From Heterodontus francisci (taxonomy: Eukaryota): a stretch of 64,000 nt of DNA. Positions within the stretch are counted from its first letter, which is position 1. Each line of letters starts with the position of its first letter. The position numbers and the translations under genes are program-made. Positions 6,190 to 61,370 of the stretch are shown here, in pieces. A model generated the notes under the pieces. That model worked only from the letters and a program-made list of their open reading frames with translations. It was not told the DNA's origin and did no database searches. The stretch lies in NCBI RefSeq assembly GCF_036365525.1, contig NC_090411.1:35112111-35176110 (forward strand), written 5' to 3'.

Positions 6190-8435
6190 ACAGCTACTTG
6201 AAGGAAAATCAGTGTCACAGCAGCGGGAGGCATTAAAAGGAGATGGTGAGTGTTCAGAATAGATATGCTCCCAGAAAAAGCGTGGCACTCCCAAATCTAG
6301 ACCCCCTGGACATCAAAGACTGTACAGGGTAGGATAAGGCAAAGAGGGAAGCTTGTATCAGATAGCAAGAGCTACAGAAAGTGCAGGAGTGAAGTTAAAA
6401 AAAGGCAATGAGGAAAGTGAAAAAATATTAACACATAAAACGGAGGATAACCCAAAGAGGTTTTATAAATAAAGGGTAAAAGATACCAAGGAAAGAGTAG
6501 GGCCCATTAAAGGTTACCTGCGTGTGGAGGTGGAAGACAAGGGCATGGTTCTTAATGAATACTTTGCGTCTGTCTTCACAAAAGAGGACGAAGACGATGC
6601 AGACATTGTAGCTAAGGAGGAATGTGAAATATTGGATGGGATAAACACAGTAAGAGGAAATATGAAGGGGTGTAGCATCTTTAAAAGTGAATAAAATGGA
6701 AGGCTGTTAAGAGAAGCAAGGGAGGAAATAATAGAGGCTCTGACCATCATTTTCCAATCCCCCCTAGCTACAGGTATGGTGCAGGACTGCTGATGTACTC
6801 TTGTTTAAAAAGGGAGGAAGGGATAAAGATTAATTGCAGGCCTAACCTCAGTGTTGGGGAAAATTATTGGAAGAAATTTTAAGACACACTATAATGGCTA
6901 TAATTGTCATTTAGTAAGGCACAAATTAATCAAGAACACCAGCCTCACAGCTCCAGGGACCCGGGTTCTATTCTGGGTACTGCCTGTGAAGAGTTTGCAA
7001 GTTCTCCCTGTGTCCGCGTGGGTTTTCGCTGGGTGCTCCTGTTTCTTCCCACAGCCAAAAGACTTGCAGGTGATAGGTAAATTGGCCATTATAAATTGCC
7101 CCTAGTGTAGGTAGGGAATATGGGATTACTGTAGGGTTAGTATAAATGGGTGGTTGTCGGTTGGCACAGACTCGGTGGGCCGAAGGGCTTGTTTCAGTGC
7201 TGTATCTCTAAATAAAAATAAATAAATAAACACCAGCATGAATTTGTTAAGGGAAGGTCATGTCTAACTGAACTTGACTGAATTTTTTGAGGTGGTAACA
7301 AGGAGCGTAGATGAGGGGAGCATGTTTGATGTAGTCTACATGGATTTTAGCAAAGCTTTTGACAAGGTCCCACGTGGCAGAATGGTCAGAAAAGTAAAAG
7401 CCCATTGGATCCAAGGGTAAGTGGCAAAATTGGCTCAGTGGCAGGTGATAACCAAGCAAAGCGATGGTCGACAGGTGTGGGTGTGACTGGAAGGCCGTTT
7501 TCAGTGGGGTTCTGGGTACCTCATTTTTTCCTGGTCTATATCAACAGTCAGACAAATATAGGGGACATGATTAAGAAATTGGCTGTTTAGTTGAGTGAGG
7601 AAGAAAGCTATAGGATGCAGGAAGCTATCAAATGGACTGGTCAGATGGGCAGGAAAGTGACAAACTGAATTCAATCCTGAGAAGTATGAGGTAATGTATT
7701 TAGTAAGGACAAACAAGGCAAGGGAACTCTCAATAAATGGTAGAAGTGTAGAGGAACTTGGAGTACTGAAGGTAGGACAGATAGATAAGGAGTTAAGGAG
7801 GCACACGGGATACTTTCCTTTATTAGCAGAGGTACAGAATATAAAAGCAGGGAGGTTGTGCTACAACTCTACAAAACACTAGTTATGTCACAGCTAGAAA
7901 ACTGCATACAGTTCTGGTTACTGTATTACAAGGAGGATGTGATTGCACTAGAGAGGGTACAGAGAAGATTTAAGAGAACATTGTCTGGACTGGAGAATTT
8001 TAGCTATGAGTAAAGATTGTATAGGTTGGAGTGGTTTTCTTTGCAACAGAGGAAGCTGAGGGGAGATTTAATTGAGGTGTATAAAATTATGAGGGGCCTA
8101 GATAGAGTGGATAGGAAGGACCTATTTCCTTCAGCAGAGGGGTCAATAACCAGGGTGCACAGATTTAAAACAATTGGTGGAAGGATTAGTGGAAAGTTGA
8201 GGGAAATATTTTTCACCCAGTGGGCATGGGGTCTGGAACTCACTGTCTGAAAGGGTGGTAGAGGCAGAAAACCTCATCCCATTTTTATAAAACTTGGATA
8301 GGCACTTAAAGTTCCATAGCCCAGTAGGATGCAGCACAAGATCTGGAAAGTAGGATTAGGCTGGACAGCTCTATCAGCCAGCACTTAAATGATGGGCTGA
8401 ATGGCCTCCTTCTGTGCCATAAATTTCTAAGATTG
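6190..8435 (+). mobile_element. Degenerate CR1 ORF2 and 3' end
   Basis: Fragmented CR1 RT-like reading frames (DFSKAFDKVPH; LRGDLIEVYKIM) and a CR1 3' stem-loop/tail. Confidence 0.85.
6944..7228 (+). mobile_element. HE1-like V-SINE, 5'-truncated, inserted in a CR1
   Basis: Matches 17130-17440; TSD AACACCAGC at 6935-6943 and 7229-7237. Confidence 0.85.
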
Positions 8436-30394: not shown

Positions 30395-33300
30395 AAGAAC
30401 ACAATAGGAGCAGGAGTAGACCATATGGCCCATCGAGCCTGCTGCACCATTCAATACGATCACGGCTGATCTTGGGCCACTTACCCACCTGTTCACCATA
30501 TCCCTTGATGCCCTGAGAGACCAAAAATCCGTCTATCCCAGCCTTAAATGTATTCAATGATAGAGCATCCACAACATTCTGGAGTAGAGAATTCCAAAGA
30601 TTCACAACTCTTTGAGTGAAGTAATTTCTCCTCATCTCAGTCCTAAATGATCGACCCCTTATCCTGAGACTTTTTTTTATTCATTCATGAGATGTTGGCG
30701 TCACTGGCAATGCCAGCATTTATTATCCATCCCTAATTGCCCTTGAGAAGGTGGTGGTGAGCTGTCTTCTTGAACTGCTGCAGTCCATTTGGGGTAGGTA
30801 TACCCACAGTGCTGTTAGGAAGGGAGTTCCAGGATTTTGACCCAGCGACAGTGAATGAACGGCAATATAGTTCCAAGTCAGGATGGTGTGTGACCTGGAT
30901 GGGAACTTGCAGGTGGTAGTGTTCCTATGCATCTGCTGCTCTTGTCCTTCGAGGTGGTAGAGGTCGCGGGTTTGGAAGGTGCTGTCTAAGGAGTTTTGGT
31001 GCGTTGCTGCAGTGCATCTTGTAGATGGTACACACTGCGGCCACTGTGCATTGGTGGTGGAGGGGGTGAATGTTTGTAGATGGGGTGCCAATCAAGCGGG
31101 CTGCTTTGTCCTGGATGGTGTCGAGCTTTTTGAGTGTTGTTGGAGCTGCACCCATCCAGGCAAGTGGAGAGTATTCCATCACACTCCTGACTTGTGCCTT
31201 GTAGATGTACAGGCTTTGGGAGTCAGGTGGTGAGTTACTCGCCGCAGGATTCCTAGCCTCTGACCTGCTCTTGTAGCCATGGTATTTATATGGCTACTCC
31301 AGTTCAGTGTCTGGTCAATGGTAGCCTCTAGGATGTTGATAGTGGGGGATTCAGCAATGGTAATGCCATTGAATGTCAAGGGGAGATGGTTAGATTCTCT
31401 CTTGTTGGAGATGGTCATTGCCTGGCACTTGTGTGGCACAAATGTTACTTGCCACTTATCAGCCCAAGCCTGGATATTGTCCAGGTCTTGCTGCATTTCT
31501 ACACGGACTGCTTCAGCATTTGAGGAGTCACGAATGGTGCTGAATATTGTGCAATCATCAGCAAACATCCCCACTTCTGACTGTATGATTGAAGGAAGGT
31601 CATTGATGAAGCAGCTGAAGATGGTTGGGCCTAGGACACTACCCTGAGGAACTCCTGCAGTGATGTCCTGGAGCTCAGATGATTGACCTCCAACAACCAC
31701 AGCCATCTTCCTTTGCGCTAGGTATGACTCTAACCAGCAGAGAGTTTTCCCCCTGATTCCCATTGACTCCAGTTTTACTAGGGCTCTTTGATGCTGCCTT
31801 GATGTCAAGGGCAGTTACTCTCACCTCACCTCTTGAGTTCTGCTCTTTTGTCCATGTTTGAACCAAGGCTGTAATGAGGTCAGGTGCTGAGTAGCCCTGG
31901 CAGAACCCAAACTGGGTATGACTGAGCAGGTTATTGCTAATCAAGTGCCGCTTGATGACACTGTTGATGACACCTTCCATCCCTTTACTAATGATTGAGA
32001 GTATACTGATGTGGTGGTAATTGATCGGGTTGGACTTGTCCTGCTTTTTGTGTACAGGACATACCTGGGCAATTTTCCACATTGCAGGGTAGATGCCAGT
32101 GTTGTAGCTGTACTGGAACAGCTTGGCTAGGGGTGCGGCAAGTTCTGGAGCACAGGTCTTCAGTACTATTGCTGGAATATTGTCAGGGCCCATAGCTTTT
32201 GCAGTATCCAGTGCCTTCAGTCGTTTCTCGATATCACGCGGGGTGAATTGAATTGGCTGAAGTCTGGCATCTGTGATGCTGGGGACTTCAGGAGGAGGCC
32301 GAGATGGATCATCAACTTGGCACTTCTGGCTGAAGATTGTTGCAAATGCTTCAGCCTTATCTTTCGCACTGATGTGCTGGGCTCCCCCATCATTGAGGAT
32401 GGGGATTTTGTGGAGCCACCTCCTCCAGTTAGTTGTTTAATTGTCCACCACCAATCACGGCTGTGCCCCCGTGTTTTAGATTCCTTGACCAGCGGAAACA
32501 ATCTCTGTGTCTACCCTATCCAGCCCTTTCAGAATCTACTATCTTTCAATGAGATCGCCTCTCATTCTTCTAAACTCCAGAGAAAATAGGCTCAATTTAC
32601 TCAGCCTCTCATCAAAAGACAACCCCATCATCCCAGGAACCAACTTAGTGAACCTTTGCTGTACCGTCTCCAATGCAAGTATATCCTTAAATGTGGAGAC
32701 CAGACTGCACACAGTATTCCAGATGTGGTCTCACCAAAACCCTGTACAATTGTCGCATGACTTCCTTATACCTGTACTCCAATCACCTTGCAATAAAGGC
32801 CAACGTGCCATTTGCCTTCTTAATTGCTTGCCGTATCTGTATGCTAACTGTCTACGTTCCTTGTACAAGAAAACCCAAGTCTCTTTGAACATCAACACTT
32901 ACGAGTTTCACACCTTTTTAAAAAAAAAAAAAATTCTGCTTTTCTATTCTTACGACCAAAGTGAATAACTTCATACTTCCCTACATTTTACTCCATCTGC
33001 CACTTAACCTGTCTATATCTCTTTGCAACCTCTCTGTGTCCTCCCCACAGCTTACCTTTCCACCTACCTTTGTATCATCAGCAAACTTAGATACATTACT
33101 CTCTCTCCCTTCATCTAATGTAGATTGTAAATAGCTGAGGCCCCAGCACTGATCCTCGAGGCACTCCACTGTTCAGTGCCTGCCAACTTGAAAATGCCCT
33201 GTTTATTCCCACCCGTTGCTTCCTGTCCATTAACCAATCCTCTGTCCATGCTAATATATTACCCCCAATTCCATGAGCCCTTATCTTGCCTATTAACCTC
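30395..33300 (-). mobile_element. CR1 3' portion split by the LINE at 30672-32463
   Basis: SKFADDTKVGG at 32981-33169; CR1 3' UTR at 30395-30671. Confidence 0.8.
30672..32463 (-). mobile_element. 5'-truncated copy of the 43033-46302 LINE family, inserted into a CR1 fragment
   Basis: Minus-strand RT ORFs (GVPQGSVLGP, FADD); poly(T) tail at about 30671; the host CR1 sequence resumes at about 32464. Confidence 0.9.
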
Positions 33301-43032: not shown

Positions 43033-46000
43033 GGTAGACAGTGGCGTAGTGGTATTATCACTGGACTAATAACCCAGAGACCCAGGGTATTTCCTGGGTT
43101 CGAATCCCACCACAGCAGAAGGTGGAATTTGAATTTAATTAATAAATCTGGAATTAAAAGCTAGTCTAATGATGGCCATGAAACCATTGTTGATTGTTGT
43201 AAAAACCCATCTGGTTCACTAATGTCCTTTAGGGAAGGAAATCTGCTGTTCTTACCTGGTCTGGCCTACATGTGACTCCAGACCCACAGCAATGTGGTTA
43301 ACTCTTCCATGCCCTCTGAAATGGCCTAGCAAGCCACTCAGTTGTACCTAACCACTACGAAGTCAATAAAAAGGAATGAAACCGGACGGACCACCCAGCA
43401 TCGACCTAGGCACCGGAAATGACAATGGCAAACCCAGCCCTGTCGACCCTGCAAAGTCCTCCTGACTAACATCTGGGGGCTTGTGCCAAAGTTGGGAGAG
43501 CTGTCCCACAGACTAGTCAAGCAACAGCCTGACATAGTCATACTCATGGAATCATACCTTACAGACAATGTCGCAGACACTGCCATCACCATCCCCGGGT
43601 ATGTCCTGTCCCACCGGCAGGACAGACCCACCAGAGGTGGTGACACAGTGGTATACAGTAGGGAGGGAGTTGCCCTGGGAGTCCTCAACATCAACTCCGG
43701 ACCCCATGAAGTCTCATGGCTCCAGGTCAAACATGGGCAAGGTAACCTCCTACTGATTACCACCTACCACCCTCCCTCAGCTGATGACTCAGTACTCCTC
43801 CATGTTGAACACCACTTGGAGGAAGCACTGAGGGTGGCAAGGGCACAAAATGTACTCTGGATGGGGGACTTCAATGTCCATCACCAAGAGTGGCTCGATA
43901 GCACCACCACTGACCGAGCTGGCCGAGTCCTAAAGGACATAGCTGCTAGACTGGATCTGCGGCAGGTGGTGAGGGAAAAACATACTTGACCTCGTCCTCA
44001 CCAATCTGCCTACCGCAGATGCTTCTGTCCATGACTGTATTGGTAGGAGTGACCACCGCACAGTCTTTGTGGAGACAAAGTCCCGCCTTCACATTGAGGA
44101 TACCGTCCCTCGTGTTGTGTGGCACTACCACCGTGCTAAATGGGATAGATTTCGAACAGATCTAGCAATGTAAAACTGGGCATCCATGAGGCGCTGTGGG
44201 CCATCAGCAGCAGCAGAATTGTACTCAACCACAATCTGTAACCTCATGGCCCGGCATATTTCCCACTCTGCCATTACCATCAAGCCAGGAGACCAACCCT
44301 GGTTCAATGAAGAGTGCAGGAGGGCATGCCAGGAGCAGCACCAGGCACACTTCAAAATGAGGTGTCAACCTGGTGAATGTACAACACAGGACTATCTTCG
44401 TGCCAAACTGCGTAAGCAGCCTGCGATAGAGATAAGCGATCCCATAACCAACGGATCAGATCTAAGCTCTGCAGTCCTGCCACATCCAGCCGTGAATGGT
44501 GGTGAACAATTAAACAACTAACTGGAGGAGGTGGCTCCACAAATATCTCCATCCGCAATGATGGGGGAGCCCAGCACATCAGTACGAAAGATAAGGCTGA
44601 AGCATTTGCAACAATCTTCAGCCAGAAGTGCCAAGTTGATGATCCATCTTGGCCTCTTCCTGAAGTCCCCAGCATCACAGATGCCAGACTTCAGCCAATT
44701 CGATTCACTCCGCGTGATATCAAGAAACGACTGAAGGCACTGGATACTGCAAAAGCTATGGCCCTGACAACATTCCAGCAATAGTACTGAAGACCTGTGC
44801 TCCAGAACTTGCCATGCCCCTAGCCAAGCTGTTCCAGTACAGCTACAACACTGGCATCTACCCTGCAATGTGGAAAATTGCCCAGGTATGTCCTGTACAC
44901 AAAAAGCAGGACAAGTCCAACCCGATCAATTACTGCCCCATCAGCCTGCTCTCAATCATCAGTAAAGTGATGGAAGGTGTCATCAACAGTGCCATCAAGC
45001 GGCACTTGCTTAGCAATACCTGCTCAGTGACACTCAGTTTGGGTTCCGCCAGGGCCACTCAGCTCCTGACCTCATTACAGCCTTGGTTCAAACATGGACA
45101 AAAGAGCTGAACTCAAGAGGTGAGGTGAGAGTGACTGCCCTTGACATCAAGGCAGCATTTGACATCAAGTATGGCATCAAGGAGCCCTAGCAAAACTGAG
45201 GTCAATGGGAATCAGGGGGAAAACCCTCCGCTGGCTGGAATCATACCCAGCGCAAAGGAAGATGGTTGTAGTTGTTGGAGGTCAATCATCTGAGCTCCAG
45301 GACATCACTGCAGGAGTTCCTCAGGATAGTGTCCTAGGCCCAACCATCTTCAGCTGCTTCATCAATGACCTTCCTTCAATCATACGGTCAGAAGTGGGGA
45401 TGTTCGCTGATGATTGCACAATGTTCAGCACCATTCGTGACTTCTCAGATACTGAACCAGTCCGTGTAGAAATGCAGCAAGACCAGGACAATATCCAGGC
45501 TTGGGCTGATAAGTGGCAAGTAACATTCACACCACACAAGTGCCAGGCAATGACCATCTCCAACAAAAGAGAATCTAACCATCTCCCCTTGACATTCAAC
45601 GGCATTACCATCGCTGAATCCCCCACTATCAACATCCTAGGGGCTACCATTGACCAGAAACTGAACAGGAGTAGCCATATAAATACCGTGGCTACAAGAG
45701 CAGGTCAGAGGCTAGGAATCCTGTGGCGAATAACTCGCCTCCTGACTCCCAAAGCCTATCCACCATCTACAAGGCACAAGTCAGGGGTGTGATGGAATAC
45801 TCTCCACTTGCCTGGATGGGTGCAGCTCCAACAACACTCAAGAAGCTCAACACCATCCAGGACAAAGCAGCCCGCTTGACTGGCACCCCATCTACAAACA
45901 TTCACTCCCTCCACCACCAACGCACAGTGGCAGCAGTGTGTACCATCTACAAGATGCACTGCAGCAACGCACCAAGGCTCCTTAGACAGCACCTTCCAAA

Positions 46001-46557: not shown

Positions 46558-48886
46558 CTAATATCTCCTTATGTCGCTTTGTCACAAATTTTGATAACGT
46601 TCCTGTGATGTGCCTTGGGATGTTTTATTGTGTTAAAGGCGCTATATGAATGCAAGTTAGTGTCATCCAACGTCAACAATCCAATTGGATTTTTCACTGC
46701 TGCTCTGAGGTTGTGCCTCTGCTCAGTAATATGCAGCTTGGCTCAGAGCAGAGCGAGCCATTCCGATCAGTTCATCCCTTTCTTCATAAATAAGACACAC
46801 ACCTTGTTTACTTTTTGCTGATGCATTCAACCTGGGGAGGGCTCTTGCAAGAGAAAGTTTTAAGTAATGAATATTCTGCGAGGGAATTTGGAAAATAAAA
46901 AGCCGCACAGCAATGAGAAACAGTAACACTGCTTCCAAATGATGCAACATTAAGTTCAGCCTGTATATTGCTGTTTTTAGTTAGTGCTGAGTCACTTATT
47001 GCAAATTATACAGTGACAGTAACTATGCAGCCAGTGTCATGGCATTCCATAGTAACTCCATGGAGATATGCAAATTACAAGTCCTTATGCAAGGTAAGTG
47101 CCATACTGTAGGCTGCAGAGACCAAGTCAACACAATGGAGCTTTGTAAGAAGGCAAATCAAGTGGTTCATGTGACATTGTCATGAAGCGCAAGCTCAATA
47201 TGCAAGCTGTTTATGAACATCAGCTGAACCCTGAGATTTTAAGTCCGTGAGATAATAACCAGATCATGTGTGCATATAAAACCATACAGCACCGCAGGAG
47301 TCCATTCAGCCCATCATGCCTGTGCTGGCCTTTTGAAAGAGCTGTCCAATTAGTCCCATTTCCCCCTTTGCTTTTTCCCCATTGCCCCGTAACTTTTTCT
47401 GTTTCAAGTATTTCTCCAATTCCCCTTTGAAGATTATTATTGAATTTGTTTCCACCCCCCTTTCAGATCATAACTCGCTGCGGAAAAAAAAATTCCCCTC
47501 AACTCTCCTCTGGTTCTTCTGCCAACCTTAAATCCGCGTCCTCTAGTTACTGACAGAGTAAATAGGGAGAACTATTTCTACTATCAAAACTCCACGTGAT
47601 TTTGAACATCTCTATTAAATCGCCCTTTAACCTTCTCAGCTTAAGTAGAACAATTGCAGCTTCCCTCAGGTCCAATCCTAAATTTACCATTAAACCATTA
47701 AACAAGGGTGACACTGTTGGTGCTCGAGGAGCTGAAGTCTACCTTTCGGAGGCTGAATGCCAATTCTCTGACCTCTCCTTCCATGACCCCACATCAAGCC
47801 ATCACTTCCCAGACTGTCACCGACCTCATCTCCGCTGGAGAGCTTATCTCCACAGCCTTCAACTTCATCGTCCCTCAACCCCACACAGACCACGTCTACC
47901 TCATTTCAAAGATCTACAACAGGGTTGCCTGATAGGGCAATCATTTAAGCCATGGCACTGATTTCTTCCGATATCAACTATTTTTTTCTTCTACTCCTGT
48001 CCTGTCTCTTCCCACCTACGTCCATGACTTCCAACACCCACTACCACTTTAACAGTTTCCTGGCCCCAACCCATCTCCTTTTCACCATGAACATCCAATC
48101 CCTTTACACTTCCAACTCCCACCAGGACGGTCTTAAGGCTCTCCACTTCTTCCTTGAATGGAGGCCCAACTAGTCCTCATCCACCACCACCCTCCTCCAC
48201 CTGTCTGAACTTGTTCTCACATTGAACAACTTCTCCTTTAACTCCATTCACTTCATCCAAATAAAAAGTGTTGCTATGGAAACCTGTAAGGTTCCTAGCT
48301 ATGTCTGCCTTTTTGTGGGATATGTGAAACATTCTTTGTTGGAACCTTTCTCGGACCCTCTTGCTCATCTCTGTTTCTGGTAAATTGATGACTGTATCAC
48401 GGCTCTCGACCTGAACTGGAAAATGTCATCAGCTTTGTTTCCCATTTCCACCCTTCCCTCATCTGCACATGGTTCATCTCTGACTCTTCCCTTACCTTTG
48501 TCAACTTCTCTATCTCCATTTTTGCAATAGACTGTTGGTCAATATCTGCTCTACTCCACTGACTCCCACAGCTACCTTACACTGATTACACTTCCTCACA
48601 TCTTCCTGTAAGGAGTCTATTCCATTCTCCCAGTTTTTCTGTCTCTGTCCTGTTGATGCCACCTCCCATACCAATGCTTTCAATATGTCTTCCTTTTTCC
48701 TCAACTGAGGATTCCCCCTCCACCGTGGTCGACAGGGCCCTTGACCATGTCTGTCCCACTTCCCGCACATCTGTTCTCGCTTCCCCTCCTTCCCTCCCAG
48801 AATCACGATCAGGTTACCATTGTCTGCACCTTCCACCCCATCAGCCTCCACAAGCAATGCATCATCTTCCACCAATTCCACCACCT

Positions 48887-51800
48887 GGAGGGATGGTGCA
48901 GGAGGGAGGGTTTTGGTTTCCTGGATAATTGGGGCTCTTTCTGGGGTAGGTGGGACCTCTACAAACAGGATGGTCTTCACCTGAACCAGAGGGGTACCAA
49001 TATCCTGGGGGGGAGATTTGCTAGTGCTCTTCGGGGGGGGTTTAAACTAATTCAGCAGGGGAATGGGAACCTAAATTGTAATGCCAGTGTACAGGATGTT
49101 GAGAGTAGTGAGGTCAGGGATAAGGTTACAAGGACGCAATAGGGCACTGGCAAGCAAGAACCTGGTTTAAAGTGTGTCTACTTCAACGCCAGGAGCATCC
49201 GGAATAAGGTGGGTGAGCTTGCAGCATGGGTTGGTACCTGGGATCTCGATGTAGTGGCCATTTCGGAGACATGGGTAGAGCAGGGGCAGGAATGGATGTT
49301 GCAGGTTCCGGGATTTAGATGTTTCAGTAAGAACAGAGAAGATGGTAAAAGAGGGGGGGGGGGGGGGGTGGCATTGTTAATCAAGGAGAGTATTACAGGG
49401 ACAGAAAGGACATTTGAGGACTCGTCTACTGAGGTAGTATGGGCCGAGGTTAGAAACAGGAGAGGTGAGGTCACCCTGTTGGGAGTCTTTTATAGACCTC
49501 CGAATAGTTCCAGAGATGTAGAGGAAAGGATAGCGAAGATGATTCTCGACAGGGGCGAGAGTAACAGGGTAGTTATTATGGGGGACTTTAACTTTCCAAA
49601 TATTGACTGGAAATACTATAGTTCGAGTACTTTAGATGGGTCAGTTTTTGTCCAGTGTGTGCAGGAGGGTTTTCTGACACAGTATGTAGACAGGCCAACC
49701 AGGGGCGATGCCACATTGGATTTGGTACTGGGAAATGAACCCGGCCAGGTGTTAGATTTAGATGTAGGTGAGCACTTTGGTGATAGTGATCACAATTCGG
49801 TTAGGTTTACCTTAGCGATGGGCAGGGACAGGTATATACCGCAGGGCAAGAATTATAGCTGGGGGAGAGGAAATTATGATGCGATTAGGTAAGATTTAGG
49901 ATGCGTAGGATGGGGAAGGAAACTGCAGGGGATGGGAACAATCGAAATGTGGAGCTTATTCAAGGAGCAGCTACTGCGTGTCCTTGATAAGTATGTATCT
50001 GTCAGGCAGGGAGGAAGTTGTCAAGCGAGGGAGCCGTGGTTTACTAAAGAAGTTGAAGCGCTTGTCAAGAGGAAGAAGAAGGCTTATGTTAGGATGAGAC
50101 GTGAAGGCTCAGTTAGGGCGCTTGAGAGTTACAAGCTAGCCAGGAAGGATCTAAAGGGAGAGCTAAGAAGAGCAAGGAGAGGACACGAGAAGTCATTGGC
50201 GGATAGGATCAGGGAAAACCCTAAGGCTTTCTATAGGTATATCAGGAATAAAAGAATGACTAGAGTTAGATTAGGGCCAATCAAGGATAGTAGTGGGAAG
50301 TTGTGTGTGGAATCAGAGGAGATAGGGGAAGCGTTAAATGAATATTTTGCGTCAGTATTTACAGTAGAGAAAGAAAATGTTGTCGAGGAGAATACTGAGA
50401 TTCAGGCTACTAGGCTAGATGGGATTGAGGTTCACAAGGAGGAGGTGTTATCAATTTTGGAAAGTGTGAAAATAGATAAGTCCCCTGGGCCAGATGGGAT
50501 TTATCCTAGGATTCTCTGGGAAGCTAGGGAGGAGATTGCAGAGCCTTTGTCCTTGATCTTTATGTCGTCATTGTCGACAGGAATAGTGCCGGAAGACTGG
50601 AGGATAGCAAATGTTGTCCCCTTGTTCAAGAAGGGGAGTAGAGACAGCCCTGGTAATTATAGACCTGTGAGCCTTACTTCGGTTGTGGGTAAAATATTGG
50701 AAAAGGTTATAAGAGACAGGATTTATAATCATCTAGAAAAGAATACGTTCATTAGCGATAGTCAGCACGGTTTTGTGAAGGGTAGGTCGTGCCTCACAAA
50801 CCTTATTGAGTTTTTCGAGAAGGTGACCAAACAGGTGGATGAGGGTAAAGCAGTGGATGTGGTGTATATGGATTTCAGTAAGGCGTTTGATAAGGTTCCC
50901 CATGGTAGGTTATTGCAGAAAATACGGAAGTATGGGGTTGAAGGTGATTTAGAGCTTTGGATCAGAAATTGGCTAGCTGAAAGAAGACAGAGGGTGGTGG
51001 TTGATGGCAAATGTTCATCCTGGAGTTTAGTTACTAGTGGTGTATCGCAAGGATCTGTTTTGGGGCCACTGCTGTTTGTCATTTTTATAAATGACCTGGA
51101 AGAGGGTGTAGAAGGGTGGGTTAGTAAATTTGCGGATGACACTAAGGTCGGTGGAGTTGTGGATAGTGCCGAAGGATGTTGTAGGGTACAAAGGGACATA
51201 GATAGGCTGCAGAGCTGGGCTGAGAGATGGCAAATGGAGTTTAATGCGGAAAAGTGTGAGGTGATTCGCTTTGGAAGGAGTAACAGGAATGCAGAGTACT
51301 GGGCTAATGGGAAGATTCTTGGTAGTGTAGATGAACAGAGAGATCGTGGTGTCCAGGTACATAAATCCCTGAAGGTTGGTACCCAGGTTAATAGGGATGT
51401 TAAGAAGGCATATGGGGTGTTAGCTTTTATTAGTAGGGGGATCGAGTTTCGGAGCCACGAGGTCATGCTGCAGCTGTACAAAACTCTGGTGAGACCGCAC
51501 CTGGAGTATTGCGTGCAGTTCTGGTCACCACATTATAGGAAGGATGTGGAAGCTTTGGAAAGGGTGCAGAGGAGATTTACTAGGATGTTGCCTGGTATGG
51601 AGGGAAGGTCTTACGAGGAAAGGCTGAGGGACTTGAGGTTGTTTTCGTTGGAGAGAAGGAGGAGGAGAGGTGACTTAATAGAGACATATAAGATAATCAG
51701 AGGGTTAGATAGGGTGGATAGTGAGAGTCTTTTTCCTCGGATGGTGATGGCAAACACGAGGGGACATAGCTTTAAGTTGAGGGGTGATAGATATAGGACA

Positions 51801-52024
51801 GATGTCAGAGGTAGTTTCTTTACTCAGAGAGTAGTAGGGGCGTGGAACGCCCTGCCTGCAACAGTAGTAGACTCGTCAACTTTAAGGGCATTTAAGTGGT
51901 CATTGGATAGACGTATGGATGAAAATGGAATAGTGTAGGTCAGATGGTTTCACAGGTCGGCGCAACATCGAGGGCCGAAGGGCCTGTACTGCGCTGTAAT
52001 GTTCTAATTCTAATTCTAATTCTA
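48887..52024 (+). mobile_element. Young 5'-truncated CR1 LINE: end of ORF1 (SGNH esterase) plus near-intact ORF2 (APE+RT)
   Basis: DGLHLN esterase motif; LKCVYFNARSIRNK/GDFNFP/SDH endonuclease; YMDFSKAFDKVPH, QGSVLGP, FADD RT; in-frame stops at 49140 and 49890; (ATTCTA)n tail; ACCT repeated at 48883-48886 and 52025-52028. Confidence 0.95.
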
Positions 52025-52282
52025 ACCTCCAGTGTGAAGACGCCACCAAATGCATCATCCCCTTCCCTTTCAATTCCCAAGGAACTGTTCCCTCTGTGAA
52101 ACCCTGGTCCACTCCTCAATCACCCCCAACAGCCTCTCCCCTTCCCACGGCAGCTTTCCTTGCAAGTACAGGAGATGAAACACCTGCCCTTTTACTTCCT
52201 CCCTTCCAGGGCCCCAAACACTCCTTCCACATGAAACAGCAATTTCTTTATACTTCTTTCAATTTTATATACTCACATTGTA

Positions 52283-52611
52283 GGGTGGCACAGTGGCGCA
52301 GTGGTTAGCACTTCAGCCTCACAGCTCCAGCGACCTGGGTTTGATTCTGGGTACTGCCTGTGTGGAGTTCTCCCTGTATCTGCGTGGGTTTCTGCCGGGT
52401 GCTCCGGTTTCCTCCCACAGGCAAAGACTTGCAGGTTGATAGGTAAATTGGCCATTATAAATTGCCCCTAGTATAGGTAGGAGAATGGTGGGGATGGGAT
52501 AGGAATATGGGATTAGTGTAGGATTAGTATAAATGGGTGGTTGATGGTTGGCACAGACTCGGTGGGCCGAAGGGCCTGTTTCAGTGCTATATCTCTAAAT
52601 TAATAAATAAA
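52283..52611 (+). mobile_element. HE1-like V-SINE
   Basis: Same family as 17101-17460. Confidence 0.85.
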
Positions 52612-53999
52612 TGCAGCATCCTCTACATGGGAAAACCAAATGCAGATTGGGTGATTGCTTTGTGGAAAACCTCTGATCAGCTTGCAAGTGTGACCCCGAG
52701 CTTCCGACCACTTGTCATTTTAATTCTCCATCCCATTCTGACCTCTCTGTCCTGGGCCTCCTACACTGTTCCAATGAAGCTCAATGCAAGCTGGAGGAAC
52801 ACCACTTCATCTTTCAATTGGGCACTTTCCTGTCTTCTGGACTCCAGCATTATCTGGTCATTATCACCTTGCTGATTATGGGATCTTGCTATGTGCAAAT
52901 TGACTGCCAGACTTTCCAGCATTACAACATTCTAAAAGTACTTTATTGGTTGTGAAATACTTTGGAATGTCCCAAGGAGGTGCAAGGCACTGTATAAATG
53001 CAAATTATTCCAAACAATGATGCAGAAGGGATTTGCTACTATTAATGCAACAAATAAACATTTTAAAAATCATTTTCAGGACAGCCAGGCTGGCATTTAT
53101 TGTCCATCTCTAGTTACCCCTTGAGGAAGTGATGGTAAGCCACCTTCTGGAACTGCTGCAATCATGTGGTAAAGGTATTCCTAACAGTGCAGTTAGTTCC
53201 AGTTAGTAGCTTATGGGAGCTGCCTGCACTTCTTACCAGAGAGAAAATATCAATCTTTTTCATTTCAGAAACAGTCGTTGAATGTTTAGTTGTGAGAAAT
53301 GATCCTGGTGTTACCCTATCAGAACTTTGTAAAACACTGGCAAGCAGCCAGTTCCTGATCCAGGATGTTAGGTTTAGGTTGGGAAGGATCCAGGAAATGC
53401 TGCGTGTTTTCCAAAAGGAAGGGAGGAAATATCAGGGAGCATTGGCCTTGGTCACTGCTGTTTTAGTATTTACAAAGGATGAAGATACAGCCACTGCGGA
53501 ATGCATGACTTATTCAAACACAGGGACTGGACAGAGGCCCAACCTCTGTAGTGATCAAGGTGTCTATAACAGGACTGCATGACCTTGAATTAATCATTCA
53601 ACACACATTGGCCATTGATCAAAGAATAATTGTTTTTTTCTGGTATAATGAATGTGCCCAAAAGAAAAATTCTTTTTACTGAAAAGAGCACTCCTCATTT
53701 ACAAATTCATTCTAGACCTCACTGCACAACCTCTCTGCATCCTCCCTGAGGCCCATGCCCTCTCTGACTATGTGCTTCCTCCAGCCTCCCCTTTACTCCA
53801 TCGGGGCTTTCAGAGCATCGAGGCACCGCATAGTTTGTTCCCTAAATCCCGGCACCTTGTCCCCTTTCTCCCCACTTTCAGAAACTTCCTTAAACCTATC
53901 TCCATGACTGCCCCTTTGACCAGCTCCCTGAACTCTTCTCCCAAAGTCTCTATTACATGTTCAGCGCCCTTTGGGATATTTCATTATATAAATGGCCCT

Positions 54000-56340: not shown

Positions 56341-57691
56341 TGATTATTTGAAGCTGGCAGTTCACGCTCTTTTATCTTTTATTTGTGACCCACTTAGAGG
56401 CAAGAAAACTCACACCATTAGGATGAAATATTTCTCCCCAAAGCCAGCAAGTTTACCCACACTGGTTTATTTATTAATTCCTGGAGGAAAGTAAAGGTGG
56501 AATTTGTGGAGACACTGGCCATAATCTCCCAATCGTCCTTAGATACAGGCATGGTACCAGAGGACTGGAGAATTGCAAATGTTACACCCTTGTTCAAAAA
56601 AGATTGTAAGGATAAGCCCAGCAATTACAGGCCAGTCAGTTTAACCTCGATGGTGGGAAAGTGTTTAGAAGTGATAACCGGGACAAAATTAAGTCACTAG
56701 GCGAAGTATAGATTTATTAAGGAAAGCCAGCATGGATTTGTTAAATCGTGCTTAACTAACTTGAATGAGTTTTTTGATGCAGTAACAGAGAGGGTTGTTG
56801 AGGGTTATGTGATTGATGTGTTTACATGGACTTCCAAAATGCATTTGATAAAGTGCCACATAACAGGCTTGTCAGCAAAGTTGGCAGCATGGATACGAAG
56901 TTGGCTGAGTGACAGGAAACAGAGAGTAGAGGTGAACGGTTGTTTTTTGGACTGGAGGAAGGTATACAGTATGGTATTAGGACCTTGATATAGATTAATG
57001 GTCTAGACTTGGGTGTACAGGGCACAATTTCAACATTTTCAGATGAATCAAAACTTGGAAGTATTGTGAATTGTGAGGAGGATAGTGATAGACTTCAAGA
57101 GTACATAGACAGGCTGGTCTAATAGGTGGATGCATGGCAGATGAAATTTAATGCAGAGAAATGTGAAGTGATTCATTTTGGCTGGAAGAACGAGGAGAGG
57201 CGATATAAAATAAAGGGTGTAATTCTAAAGGGGGTGCAGGAACAGAGAGACCTGTGGGTGTATGTGCACAAATCATTGAAGGTGACAGGGCAGGTTCAGG
57301 AAGTGGTTAATCAGGCATTTGGGATCCTGGGCTTTATAAATAGAGGCATAGAGTACAAAAGCTAGGAAAGTATGATGAACTTTTATAAAACACTGGTTTG
57401 GCCTCAACTGGAGTATTTTGTCCAATTCTGGACATCACACTTCAGGAAGGATGTGAAGGCATTAGAGAGGGTGCAGAAAAGATTTACAAGACTGGTTCCA
57501 GGGATGAGGGACTTCAGTTACATGGAAAGATTAGAGAAGACGTATTTGGATTTTCAGAAGGCTTTCAATAAGGTCCCACACAGAAGGTTAGTAAGCAAAA
57601 TTAGAGCACATAGGATTGGGGGTGATATACTGGCATGGATTGAGAATTGGTGAACGGACAGAAAACAGAGAGTAGGAATAAACGGGTCATT

Positions 57692-58726
57692 GTGGTTGTT
57701 GGAGGTCAATCATCTGAGCTCCAGGACTTCACTGCAGGAGCTCCTCAGGGTAGTGTCCTAGGCCCAACCATCTTCAGCTGCTTCATCAATGACTTTCCTC
57801 CATCATAAGGTCAGAAGTGGGGATGTTCGCTGATGATTGCACAATGTTCAGCACCATTCGTGATTCCTCAGATACTGAAGCAGTCCGTGTAGAAATGCAG
57901 CAAGACCTGGACAATATCCAGGCTTGGGCTGATAAGTGGCAAGTAATATTCACACCACACAAGTGCCAGGCAATGACCATCTCCAACAAGAGAGAATTTA
58001 ACCATCTCCCCTTGACATTCAACGGCATTACCATCGCTGAATCCCCCACTATTAACATCCTAGGGGTTACCATTGATCAGAAACTGAACAGGAGTAGCCA
58101 TATAAATACCGTGGCTACAAGAGCAGGTCAGAGGCTAGGAATCCTGAGGCGAGTAACTCACCTCCTGACTTCCCAAAGCCTGTCCACCATCTACAAGGCA
58201 CAAGTCAGGAGTGTGATGGAATACTCTCCACATGCCTGGATGGGTGCAGCTCCAACAACACTCAAGAAGCTCAACACCATCCAGGACAAATCAGCCCGCT
58301 TGATAGGCACCCCATCTACAAACATTCACTCCCTCCACCACCGACGCACAGTGGCAGCAGTGTGTACCATCTACAAGATGTACTGCAGCAATGCACCAAG
58401 GCTCCTTAGACAGCACCTTCCAAACCTGCGACCTCTACCAACTTGAAGGACAAGGGCAGCAGATGCATGGGAACATCACCACCTGCAATTTCCCCTCCAA
58501 GCCACACACCATCCTGACTTGGAACTATATCGCCGTTCCTTCACTGTCACTGGGTCAAAATCCTGGAACTCCCTTCCTAACGGCACTGTGGGTGTACCTG
58601 CCCCACATGGACTGCAGTGGTTCAAGAAGGCAGCTCACCACCACCTTCTCAAGGGCAATTAGGGATGGACAATAAATGCTGGCCTGGCCAGCGACGCCCA
58701 CATCCCATGAATGAATTTTTAAAAAA
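57692..58726 (+). mobile_element. 5'-truncated copy of the 43033-46302 LINE family, nested in a CR1
   Basis: RT C-terminal ORF 57817-58446 and the family 3' tail; the CR1 continues on both sides. Confidence 0.9.
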
Positions 58727-58981
58727 TTCTCAGGTTGGCAGTCTGTGACTAGTGGGGTACCTCAAGGAGCAGTGCTTGAGTCCCAGCTACTCACAATCTA
58801 TATCACTGATTTGGATGTAGGGACCAAAAGTAATATTTCCAATTTTGCTGATTATACAAAACTAGGTGGGAATGTGAGTTGTGAGGGTGATGCAAGGAGG
58901 CTTCAAGGGGATTTAGACAGACTAAGTGAGTGGGCAAGAACATGGCAGATGGAATATCATGTGGAAAAATGTGAAGTTATC

Positions 58982-60175
58982 GTTTACTACATTTCCTCAC
59001 ATCCTGTTTCCTGTAAGGACTCCATCCCATTCTCCTAGTTTCTCCATCTCCAATGCATCTGCTCTGATGATGCAATCTTCCACAACAGTGCTTCTGATAT
59101 GTCTTCCTTTTTCTCAATCCTCAACCGAGGATTTCCCCCACTGTTGTTGACAGGGCCCTCATCCGTGTCTGACCTATTACCCGCACATCTGCCCTCTCCC
59201 CTTCCCCTCCCTCCCAGAACCTTGTCCTCACTTTCCACCCCACCAGCCTCCACATCCAAAGGATCATCCTCCGCCATTTCTGCCACCTCCAGTGTGATGT
59301 CGCCACCAAACGCATCTTCCCCTCCCCTCCCCTATCAGCATTCCGAAGGAATCGTCCCTCCGTGACACCCTGGTCCACTCCTCCATTACCCCCACCACCT
59401 CGCCCCTTCCCATGGCACCTTCCCATGCAATTGCAGGAGATGTAATACCTGCCCTTTTACCTCCTCTCCTCACCATCCAAGGCCCCAAACACTCCTTTCA
59501 GATGAAGCAGTGATTTACTTGTACTTCTTTCAATTTAGTATACTGTATTCACTACTCACAATGCAGTTGTCTCTACATTGGGGAGACCAAATGCAGACTG
59601 GGTGACCGCTTTGCAAAACACCTCCGCTCAGTCCGAAAGCAGGACCCCGAGCTTCTGGTTGCTTGCCATTACAACACTCCCCTCTGCTCTCATGCCAACG
59701 TTTCTGTCTTTGGCCTGCTCCAGTGTTCCAGTGAACATCAACACAAGCTCAAGGAGCAGCATCTGATCTTTTGATTAGGCACTCTACAGCCTTGCGGACT
59801 CAACATTGAGTTCAACAATTTCAGAACATGACTGGCCTTTTTTTTACATTTTTCTATTTTTTTTAACCATGTGTCTGTTTATCATGTGGACGGAGCTGCT
59901 CATTATTCTGCCATTAACACTCTCTGGACTAATGCTCTGTCTTTCACAGGACAGCTTTGTTATTTAATCTCTCCTGCCCTCTGCCCCATCACACTCCTTC
60001 CCTTTTGTTCTCTTCCCCCACGCCCCCTTCACTTGCTTAAAACCTAATTTTTTTCTAACCTTTGCCAGTTCTGATGAGGGGTCACTGACCTGTTACGTTA
60101 ACTCTGTTTCTCTCTCCACAGATGCTGCCAGACCTGCTGAATATTTCCAGCACTTTCTCTTTTTATTTACTGGAC
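58982..60175 (+). mobile_element. Penelope-like element 3' portion (GIY-YIG endonuclease remnant and terminal repeat), inserted in a CR1
   Basis: From 59532 reads NLVYCIHYSQCSCLYIGETKCRLGDRFAKHLRSV (GIY-YIG); GTTATC duplicated at 58976-58981 and 60176-60181. Confidence 0.85.
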
Positions 60176-60979
60176 GTTATCCACTTTGGTAGGAAAATCA
60201 GAAATGCAGAATATTTCTTAAATAGTGAGAGATTGGGGTTTGATGTCCAAAGGCACCTGGGTGAAACTGTTCAGGAGTCACTGAAAGCTAACAAGCAGGT
60301 GCAGCAAGCAATTAGGAAGGCAAATGGTATGTTGGCCTTTATTGCAAGAGGATTTGAGTACAGGAATAAAGATGTCTTTCTGCAATTATATAGAGCCTTG
60401 GTGAGACCGCACCTGGAGTGTTGTGCACAGTGGTCTCCTTACCAAGGAAGGATCTACTTGCCTCAGAAGGAGTGCAACGAAGGTTCACCAGACTGATCCC
60501 CTGGGATGGTGGGATTGTCTTATGAGAGATTGAGGAGACTGGGCCTATATTCTCTAGAGTTTAGAAGAGAGGTGATTTCATTGAAGCGTACAAAATTCTT
60601 ACAGGGCTCGACAGGGTAGATGCAGGAAGAATGTTTCTCCTGGCTGTGGTTGAGGGGGGTGGGGGTAGAGGGGAGGGTGGGTCCAGAACCAGGGGTCATA
60701 GTCTCAGAATAAGGGGTAGGCCATTTAAGACTGAAACGAGGAGGAATTTCTTCACTCAGAGGGTGGTGAATGTGAGGAATTCTCTACCCCAGAGAGCTGT
60801 GCAGGCTCAGTCATTGAGTATATTCAAGACAGAGATTGATAGATTTCTAGATATTAAGGGTATCAAGGGATATGGGGACAGTGCGGGAAAATGGCATTGA
60901 GGTAGATCAGCCATGATCTAGTTGAATGGTGAAGCAAGCTCGATGGGCTGAATGGCCTACTCCCGTTCCTATTTCCTAT

Positions 60980-61370
60980 GCTGGGGCTGTTCTCATTTGT
61001 TATGGGAAGGTTAAGAGATTTGCTGGAGGTGTTCAAAATCATGAGGGGTCTGGATATAATAGATAGAGAGAAACTGTTCCCATTGGTGGAAGGGTCGAGA
61101 ACCAGAGGGCCCCGATTTAAGGTGACTGGCAAAAGATCCAACGACGAGGAAAAACTATTTTACCCGACGAACGGTTCGCAGGGGGAGCGCACCGCCCGCC
61201 AGCGTGGTGGAGACAGATTCAATCGCCCGAAGGGCAAAAGATCGGCAGGCTTGGGGGAAGAAAGCGGCGGGCCCCCCCCCGCCGCGGGACCAGCTAAGCT
61301 GCTGGAGCGGAGAGCCAGCACGGACCCGATGGGCCGAACGGCCTCTTTCTGAGCTGTAGCCATTCTATGC
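60980..61370 (+). mobile_element. CpG-rich CR1 3' fragment merging with the CBX7 CpG island
   Basis: LRDLLEVFKIMRGLD...TRGPRFK and tail gatgggccgaacggcctctttctgagctgtagccattctatg. Confidence 0.75.

Follow-up and report, generated by a model that had tools for sequence, protein, structure and literature searches.

The window, that is, the whole stretch of 64,000 nucleotides that was analysed, contains a copy of a CR1 LINE of the cartilaginous-fish type, extending from ~48885 to its (TTCTAA)x4 end (Table 1). CR1-group LINEs end in short tandem repeats and have no poly(A), and the copy shows such an end, together with an ORF1 encoding an SGNH esterase and an ORF2 with APE endonuclease and reverse transcriptase (RT) domains. 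The remaining ORF1 fragment is 85% identical to residues 260–312 of the homologue P0002, which bears Lipase_GDSL_2, and a profile of the close ORF1 relatives matches the ZfL2-1 ORF1 esterase (4C1B) with an E-value of 2e-30. By eye, the junction between the two ORFs resembles rows labelled CR1 in published consensi. The copy is dead. It is 5'-truncated at ~48885 (loose ends of related contigs precede this position) and carries an in-frame TAA at 49890–49892, two features that the first-pass annotation lacked.

Table 1 Features of the CR1 copy and of its ORF1/ORF2 junction in window coordinates.
Feature	Position	Strand	Remark
CCT at 5' junction	48884–48886	+	possible 3-nt target duplication with 52026–52028
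ORF1 3' fragment, end of SGNH esterase	48885–49050	+	DGLHL at 48969–48983
G run, 8 G in the window copy	49033–49040	+	7-G form common in other copies
Candidate -1 shift site U_UUA_AAC (TTTAAAC)	49041–49047	+	sequence and conservation in relatives
ORF1 stop TAA, adjoining the heptamer	49048–49050	+	in ORF1 frame in the 7-G form
Variable purine-rich linker in ORF2 frame, no AUG in the window copy	49051–49166	+	
G-rich motif 11 nt past the heptamer, candidate unstructured stimulator	49058–49067	+	read by eye
TAG private to the window copy	49140–49142	+	G at 49140 in other copies
APE endonuclease domain of ORF2, beginning LKCVYFNARS	49167–49793	+	PF03372, E 5.5e-21; aligns to L1 endonuclease entries
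First AUG in ORF2 frame	49296–49298	+	downstream of the E43-equivalent Glu
Second premature ORF2 stop, TAA	49890–49892	+	
Reverse transcriptase domain	50631–51269	+	PF00078, E 4.9e-35
ORF2 stop	51936–51938	+	
3' tail (TTCTAA)x4	52002–52025	+	

No second ORF1/ORF2 junction was found within the 64-kb window. Other decayed LINE ORF2 fragments lie at 6338–8235, 31239–33299, 44751–45753, 56488–58987 and 60173–61136, none of them with an ORF1 junction. The CR1 copy itself is nested in a decayed RT-like element on the + strand (47640–48885 and 52026–52830), whose reading resumes past the insertion. This host element is presumably Penelope-like by its looks, and its two flanking pieces have no match in Pfam. 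At ~52280–52600 it is further interrupted by what is probably a SINE, a short insert whose head is tRNA-like and for which Rfam gave no match. Within the CR1 copy, two more G runs were noticed, i.e., seven G at 49007–49013 in ORF1, where the relatives P0016–P0018 change frame, and 16 G at 49353–49368 in ORF2, where P0021 has fewer Gly. G runs are indel hotspots in this CR1 family.

The first-pass annotation described the junction as C followed by eight G, TTTAAAC and TAA, and the letters are exactly so, with the C at 49032. It is also true, as had been claimed, that ORF1 with eight G already reads into the ORF2 frame, since the ORF1 frame passes via FKL up to the TAG at 49140–49142, which interrupts the -1 frame in this copy. 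To see the form of the family, contigs of four of 24 public runs (X1, X5, X7 and X13) were aligned over 48880–49340. The other copies carry G at 49140 (604,047 of the 604,080 depth in X1 and all depth in X5, X7 and X13, with one contig each) and read GAG there, and the TAG is therefore private. A 1-nt deletion in the G run occurs in 34 contigs of X1, with a depth of 140,355 out of 486,909 (a denominator that includes contigs ending inside the run). X5, X7 and X13 have the deletion in a single contig each, and in both X5 and X7 the contig spanning the whole stretch carries one gap. Loose contig ends reveal other subfamilies with TTTAAAC-TAG (X7) and TTTAAAC-TAA (X13). Among 20 close ORF1 homologues, 15 end with G-L-N or A-L-N, two continue into FKL, and three end otherwise. 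The contig deletions and these endings bear out the proposal that one G fewer puts the heptamer in phase before the stop, and the 7-G form, with T_TTA_AAC directly before the stop, can thus be taken as the working layout. That is, the 7-G form and the relatives have a zero-frame X_XXY_YYZ heptamer ahead of the stop, but the 8-G window copy as assembled does not, and the eighth G and the TAG of this copy are private changes or assembly errors.

The indel-prone G runs of the family (eight G here, 16 G at 49353, the frameshifted P0016–P0018) and the CAG-CAG after the stop in the window copy could also suggest that the two ORFs are joined, or ORF2 is freed, at the RNA level, either because the polymerase slips on G or T/A runs or because the RNA is spliced to an acceptor near 49055–49058. 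We consider this highly improbable, as most relatives keep the heptamer but have neither the G run nor that AG, and the runs in the heptamer are only three long. The contigs of the public runs contain no splice joint near the junction, to which we give no weight, since assembled contigs are concerned and the RNA nature of X13 is a guess.

Slippery heptamers are not rare in the window. TTTAAAC occurs 21 times on both strands (1.6e-4 per position), and any heptamer of the form XXX-AAA/TTT-[ACT] occurs 606 times (4.7e-3 per position). A single site is therefore weak, and the weight rests on the conservation in phase.

We then consider how ORF2 could be started. In the frame -1 to ORF1, a stop precedes the heptamer by ~20 codons, and the stretch between them has no Met. 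Downstream, the annotation had placed the first AUG of this frame inside the endonuclease, and indeed it is found at 49296, codon 86 counted from the heptamer. This AUG lies behind the Glu of ISETW, which aligns to the Glu of CIQET in the L1 endonuclease, taken as position 43 by count from the alignment; E43 is the catalytic Glu of the L1 endonuclease. Since the upstream stop is followed by no Met and the first AUG comes after the E43-equivalent Glu, no AUG start, judging from the reading frames, can yield an intact endonuclease in the CR1 family of the window. None of the variants at a frequency of at least 5% in the run contigs creates an AUG in the linker. Neither a conserved stop nor an AUG thus separates the heptamer from the APE domain in the window family, where 49140 begins a GAG. 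The near-cognate codons in the ORF2 frame are ATT at 49050, ACG at 49134, and several AAG and AGG. An L1-type layout, with an inter-ORF spacer and an AUG before the endonuclease, is absent in the window copy. The -1 frame accordingly runs open from the heptamer into the endonuclease with no usable start in the window family, and some relatives (P0018, P0022 and P0077) have an in-frame Met in the linker. A protein search for ORF2 N-termini gave only two proteins among 84 candidates.

To see how far the junction is conserved, a profile built from 10 of the 20 close ORF1s was compared with 1.84 billion representative proteins (50% identity), and the best 150 of 4,552 matches were analysed. Of these, 106 cover the column of the catalytic His, 104 extend at least 15 residues past the His and are called complete, and 44 end earlier; eight added cluster members were dropped from the ending counts. 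With a heptamer X_XXA_AAC before the stop, a final Asn should be preceded by L, G, K or P only, and the codon before that should end in the same X. Among the best 150 matches, 69 of the 104 complete esterase ORF1 representatives are Asn-terminal, versus 2 of the 44 ending before the motif. The 69 endings are LN (52), GN (10), KN (2), SN (2), EN (2) and FN (1), and in 63 of the 64 LN, GN and KN endings the preceding residue fits the third base required by X_XXA_AAC. Residues unable to end in G stand against Q, E, K, M or W in a ratio of 21:1 before LN and 0:9 before GN, while at internal sites the same split is 58:23 for xLN and 22:19 for xGN. Fisher's p for the contrast at the endings is 5e-7, a value that overstates independence since the rows are related. 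Tandem slippage on U_UUA_AAC is the only reading we found that would explain the covariation of the triplet two codons ahead of the stop with its neighbour.

In a FastTree tree of 102 esterase cores with the ends removed, in which 32 of 98 branches are weak, the LN ending appears in several clades, once nested inside a GN clade. Given the relatedness of the rows and the weak branches, the LN/GN pattern should be regarded as a few independent switches rather than dozens. The endings and the residues preceding them point to an interchange of U_UUA_AAC, G_GGA_AAC and A_AAA_AAC, where the heptamers behind GN and KN would be those predicted from the residues. The hosts named for LN endings include snake, turtle, anole, swallow, Komodo dragon and poison frog (seven named of ten looked up), and a sea-cucumber ORF1 protein ends with VSN. 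Among the best 150 matches, 35 of the 104 complete representatives have no Asn at the end, and five of the 69 Asn endings are EN, SN or FN.

It may be argued that the C-terminal Leu/Gly-Asn is simply needed by ORF1p, with the heptamer incidental and ORF2 made in another way. In the vertebrate clade the ending is indeed fixed at 22 residues from the catalytic His, and shared ancestry explains many of the rows. But the LN, GN or KN ending is kept over tails that vary from 19 to 60 residues past the His, and all eight rows of the DGLHP-type clade are without it, which indicates that the esterase fold does not need the ending. In addition, 17 of 17 junction rows of the published consensi available in part (see below) use TTA for Leu and AAC for Asn, preceded by a codon with T in third place, a uniformity due partly to the search design. 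We regard this explanation as quite improbable, only slightly better than one at the RNA level, and both of them fit less well than frameshifting or reinitiation.

A second search seeded with 25 distant ORF1s added 72 new proteins, 42 complete and 30 truncated. Only 19 of the 42 complete ones end with LN or GN, versus no Asn-terminal protein among the 30 truncated ones. The 19 consist of 14 YLN and five QGN. The YLN proteins are near-copies from a single family, with entries of the tubeworm Lamellibrachia in its clusters, and three of the QGN proteins are named snow crab. The endings CRG, CSG, VSR and VGR fit no heptamer. In about ten proteins, F-F, F-L or F lies close to the stop, possibly owing to a U_UUU_UUA/C site one codon earlier. 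Overall, the Asn-ending signal across CR1 ORF1s is old and widespread, but not universal.

Several further endings were observed in passing. In a branch of the crab-type clade, P0079, P0112, P0130, P0209, P0210, P0212, P0216 and P0218 end with FFR, FFH, FLG or FLV, possibly from U_UUU_UUA/C plus one codon before the stop or from a site of the UUU_CGN type, which we take to be a +1 frameshift site. P0106, P0161 and P0170 have R/T/S-K-N at the usual end position and then ~11 more residues, possibly an A_AAA_AAC with a more distant stop. Besides, three CR1 ORF1 sequences (P0003, P0005 and locus L002:56-337) are labelled Pseudomonas, Proteus and Providencia, and are most likely animal DNA in bacterial assemblies.

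The DNA of the junction can be partly recovered from the proteins themselves. In five frameshifted proteins (P0005, P0018, P0077, P0194 and P0241) the junction is translated in the -1 frame, each time as FKL. Since LN-stop stands in one frame and FKL in the other, the junction DNA has to be TTTAAA(C/T)TA. In P0241, which is of the tubeworm-linked type, no Met occurs between FKLDAQGE and LKCVCLNARS. A sixth protein with FKL, P0265, does not have it at a junction.

For consensus DNA, we searched the first 400 nt of each noisy consensus in the available part of the PMC13343379 supplement; the query contained the heptamer and is thus biased toward the motif. There are 20 matches to TTTAAACTAG/TAA, of which, by eye, 17 lie at the end of ORF1, two in 5' UTRs and one in an L2. 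The 17 junction rows are from AldAff, AllMis (2), AmiCal, AquCat, CalMil, CroPor (3), HypSab, LatCha, PriPec, ScyCan (2) and SquAca (3), so that TTTAAAC-stop is present in published consensus DNA from sharks to crocodilians. Two checks in the same partial source were free of this bias. Four rows found via terms for the endonuclease start comprise two with TTTAAAC, one beginning inside it and one behind it; among the 22 rows of part 40, four contain the junction, three with the whole heptamer and one beginning inside. The pattern of TTA, AAC and a T-ending codon also holds in these rows reached without the heptamer query. Taken together, protein endings, FKL reads and consensus DNA show that the heptamer is kept in phase before the stop far beyond the window family, a check that the annotation had proposed.

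Other sources yielded nothing at the junction. Scans of the viral contigs gave no related loci; the locus in the metagenome contigs (L001) is a false match in bacterial-looking DNA, and that in the genome contigs (L002) is a 506-nt decayed piece of ORF1 without the junction. Four matches to TTTAAACT in the available part of the PMC4316615 supplement lie near the 3' end of ORF2 and are not junctions.

The strongest rival is termination-reinitiation, in which translation would end with ORF1 and begin anew in the -1 frame. The restart would use either the overlapping codon (the UAAUG of SART1, AUU in the window copy) or, as in L1, no AUG at all, and its product would be a free ORF2p. The geometry of the junction equals the stop-start of SART1, reinitiation is the accepted route for L1 and SART1 (PMC2881922, in the part available), and any sense codon is tolerated at the L1 ORF2 start (PMC1965478, likewise in part). 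The overlapping codon is ATG in three of the 17 consensus rows available (TAATG), GTG in one and ATT in one, the window copy has ATT at 49050 (TAATT), and the linkers with an in-frame Met in P0018, P0022 and P0077 would also suit a restart. But the other 12 of these 17 rows have GGT (4), GAA, AGC, GGG, GCT, GAT, GTT, GTA or AGG at this position, and ~16% of the X1 depth has AAT there. SART1 moreover needs a downstream structure, which is not seen at the window junction, and reinitiation leaves the covariation of the XXX triplet, two codons ahead of the stop, unexplained. Reinitiation as the general route is therefore unlikely in our view, though both routes, frameshifting and reinitiation, could coexist in some shark families.

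If frameshifting is the route, a stimulator would be expected, as a bare heptamer usually shifts weakly. The annotation had seen no obvious downstream pseudoknot, and our search in the single window copy agrees, giving no hairpin 5–9 nt downstream, no long-range partner and no Rfam match at the junction. Windows beginning 6 to 10 nt past the heptamer fold no better than shuffles (z from +2.0 to -1.3, single copy), and the best long-range duplex partner is matched by 41 of 60 shuffles. Folding was done by ViennaRNA, which does not model pseudoknots, and the stretch has few C to pair (A39 G39 T25 C17 over 49051–49170). A UGGGA at 48951, upstream of the junction, which we take to be a TURBS-like motif, was discarded, since it encodes Trp-Asp and the named tetrapod ORF1s do not retain it.

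What does recur at the junctions is the stop directly after the heptamer together with a G-rich motif. By eye, six of the 17 consensus rows available have G at all five positions from +11 to +15 and then A(T/G)GGG; the residue in front is Q, P, L or R, but its codon always ends in G. In the remaining rows, which are often noisy, the motif is shifted or absent. In the window copy it is GGGGAATGGG at 49058–49067, coding Q-G-N-G here and x-G-D/E-G in relatives, and FKLDAQGE of P0241 has the same motif spacing. By analogy, the abutting stop and the G-rich motif at +11 may replace RNA structure as the stimulator. In the available part of PMC5009743, U_UUA_AAC, G_GGA_AAC and A_AAA_AAC are among the most shift-prone heptamers on mammalian ribosomes, the -1 shift of PEMV requires a nearby stop, and PRRSV has a protein-binding motif 11 nt downstream of its shift site.

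Based on the above analyses, the heptamer is a real and conserved feature, and is best read, from its sequence context, as a -1 frameshift cassette that lacks the usual RNA structure. We consider it quite probable that the ORF2p of esterase-type CR1 LINEs is produced through -1 programmed ribosomal frameshifting, as a fusion of ORF1 and ORF2. This was the interpretation of the first-pass annotation, by analogy to gag-pol, and it is the best-supported one, from the phase conservation and the lack of a usable AUG. Most ribosomes would read through UUA AAC to the stop and release ORF1p, while a minority would slip back by one base on the heptamer (UUA to UUU and AAC to AAA) and bypass the stop. 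The shifted ribosomes would then read the variable linker into the endonuclease and RT, giving an esterase-endonuclease-RT fusion, and the rarity of slippage would set a low ratio of ORF2p to ORF1p, as in gag-pol. A more tentative proposal, on which we are doubtful, is that the shift works without RNA structure, via the abutting stop and a protein binding the G-rich motif 11 nt downstream, and that the uncleaved fusion tethers the RT to a lipid-binding ORF1p particle. The protein binding the motif might be a host binder of G runs or ORF1p itself.

CR1-group elements are the dominant retrotransposons of most vertebrates, and ORF2 translation in LINEs has been called an open question (PMC13343379 and PMC3894237, in the parts available), while the worked-out LINE cases, L1 and SART1, are reinitiation (available part of PMC2881922). 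We have found no report of a frameshift site in CR1 in the open literature, as far as the accessible parts of the sources go (PMC11835228, PMC1965478, PMC4255032, PMC3905857, PMC3894237, PMC10275272, PMC5911963, PMC5006619, PMC2881922 and PMC5009743), with the primary papers of 1997–2005 outside this scope; an older suggestion of frameshifting for CR1 is quite possible. In the main text of a 2026 CR1 survey (PMC13343379), neither "frameshift" nor "slippery" occurs, and CR1 is not named in the part of PMC5009743 available. If frameshifting is true, CR1 uses the retroviral solution instead of reinitiation, the real ORF2 protein begins with ORF1p and the annotated ORF2 starts are wrong, and a widespread natural -1 site without evident RNA structure is added to those known. 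With a cassette of 100 nt, the question could be tested immediately.

Compared with a canonical -1 frameshift cassette, the CR1 junction is alike in that an X_XXY_YYZ heptamer ends the structural ORF and the enzyme ORF lies in the -1 frame without its own start. It differs in that no 3' hairpin or pseudoknot was found and the CR1 shift is deduced from sequence, and in that CR1 is a non-LTR element with no protease domain in the Pfam scan, so that the fusion may stay uncut. Mammalian L1 likewise has a bicistronic LINE RNA and a low ORF2 level, but its ORFs do not overlap and an AUG precedes the endonuclease (PMC1965478 and PMC2881922, in the parts available).

SART1 is closer in layout, with no inter-ORF spacer and an ORF2 frame that overlaps the ORF1 stop by one base, and its UAAUG coupling needs downstream RNA structure (PMC3894237 and PMC10275272, in the parts available). 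The window copy has TAATT instead of UAAUG and shows no downstream RNA structure, AUG is found in only three of the 17 CR1 junctions available, and CR1 has a conserved slippery heptamer. Among viruses, PEMV has a stop codon next to the shift site and PRRSV has a short unstructured motif at the same 11-nt distance, both analogies only (available part of PMC5009743). The PRRSV motif is C-rich, unlike the G-rich candidate of CR1, for which the binding protein is hypothetical.

The nearest precedent among LINEs is Dictyostelium TRE5-A and TRE3-A, which are stated to require a -1 frameshift for ORF2 (PMC5911963, in the part available). They belong to a different lineage with a different ORF1, and the likeness rests on the statement of this review. 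Like CR1, they are APE-type non-LTR elements with ORF2 in the -1 frame, and the idea of -1 frameshifting is thus not new for LINEs as a class.
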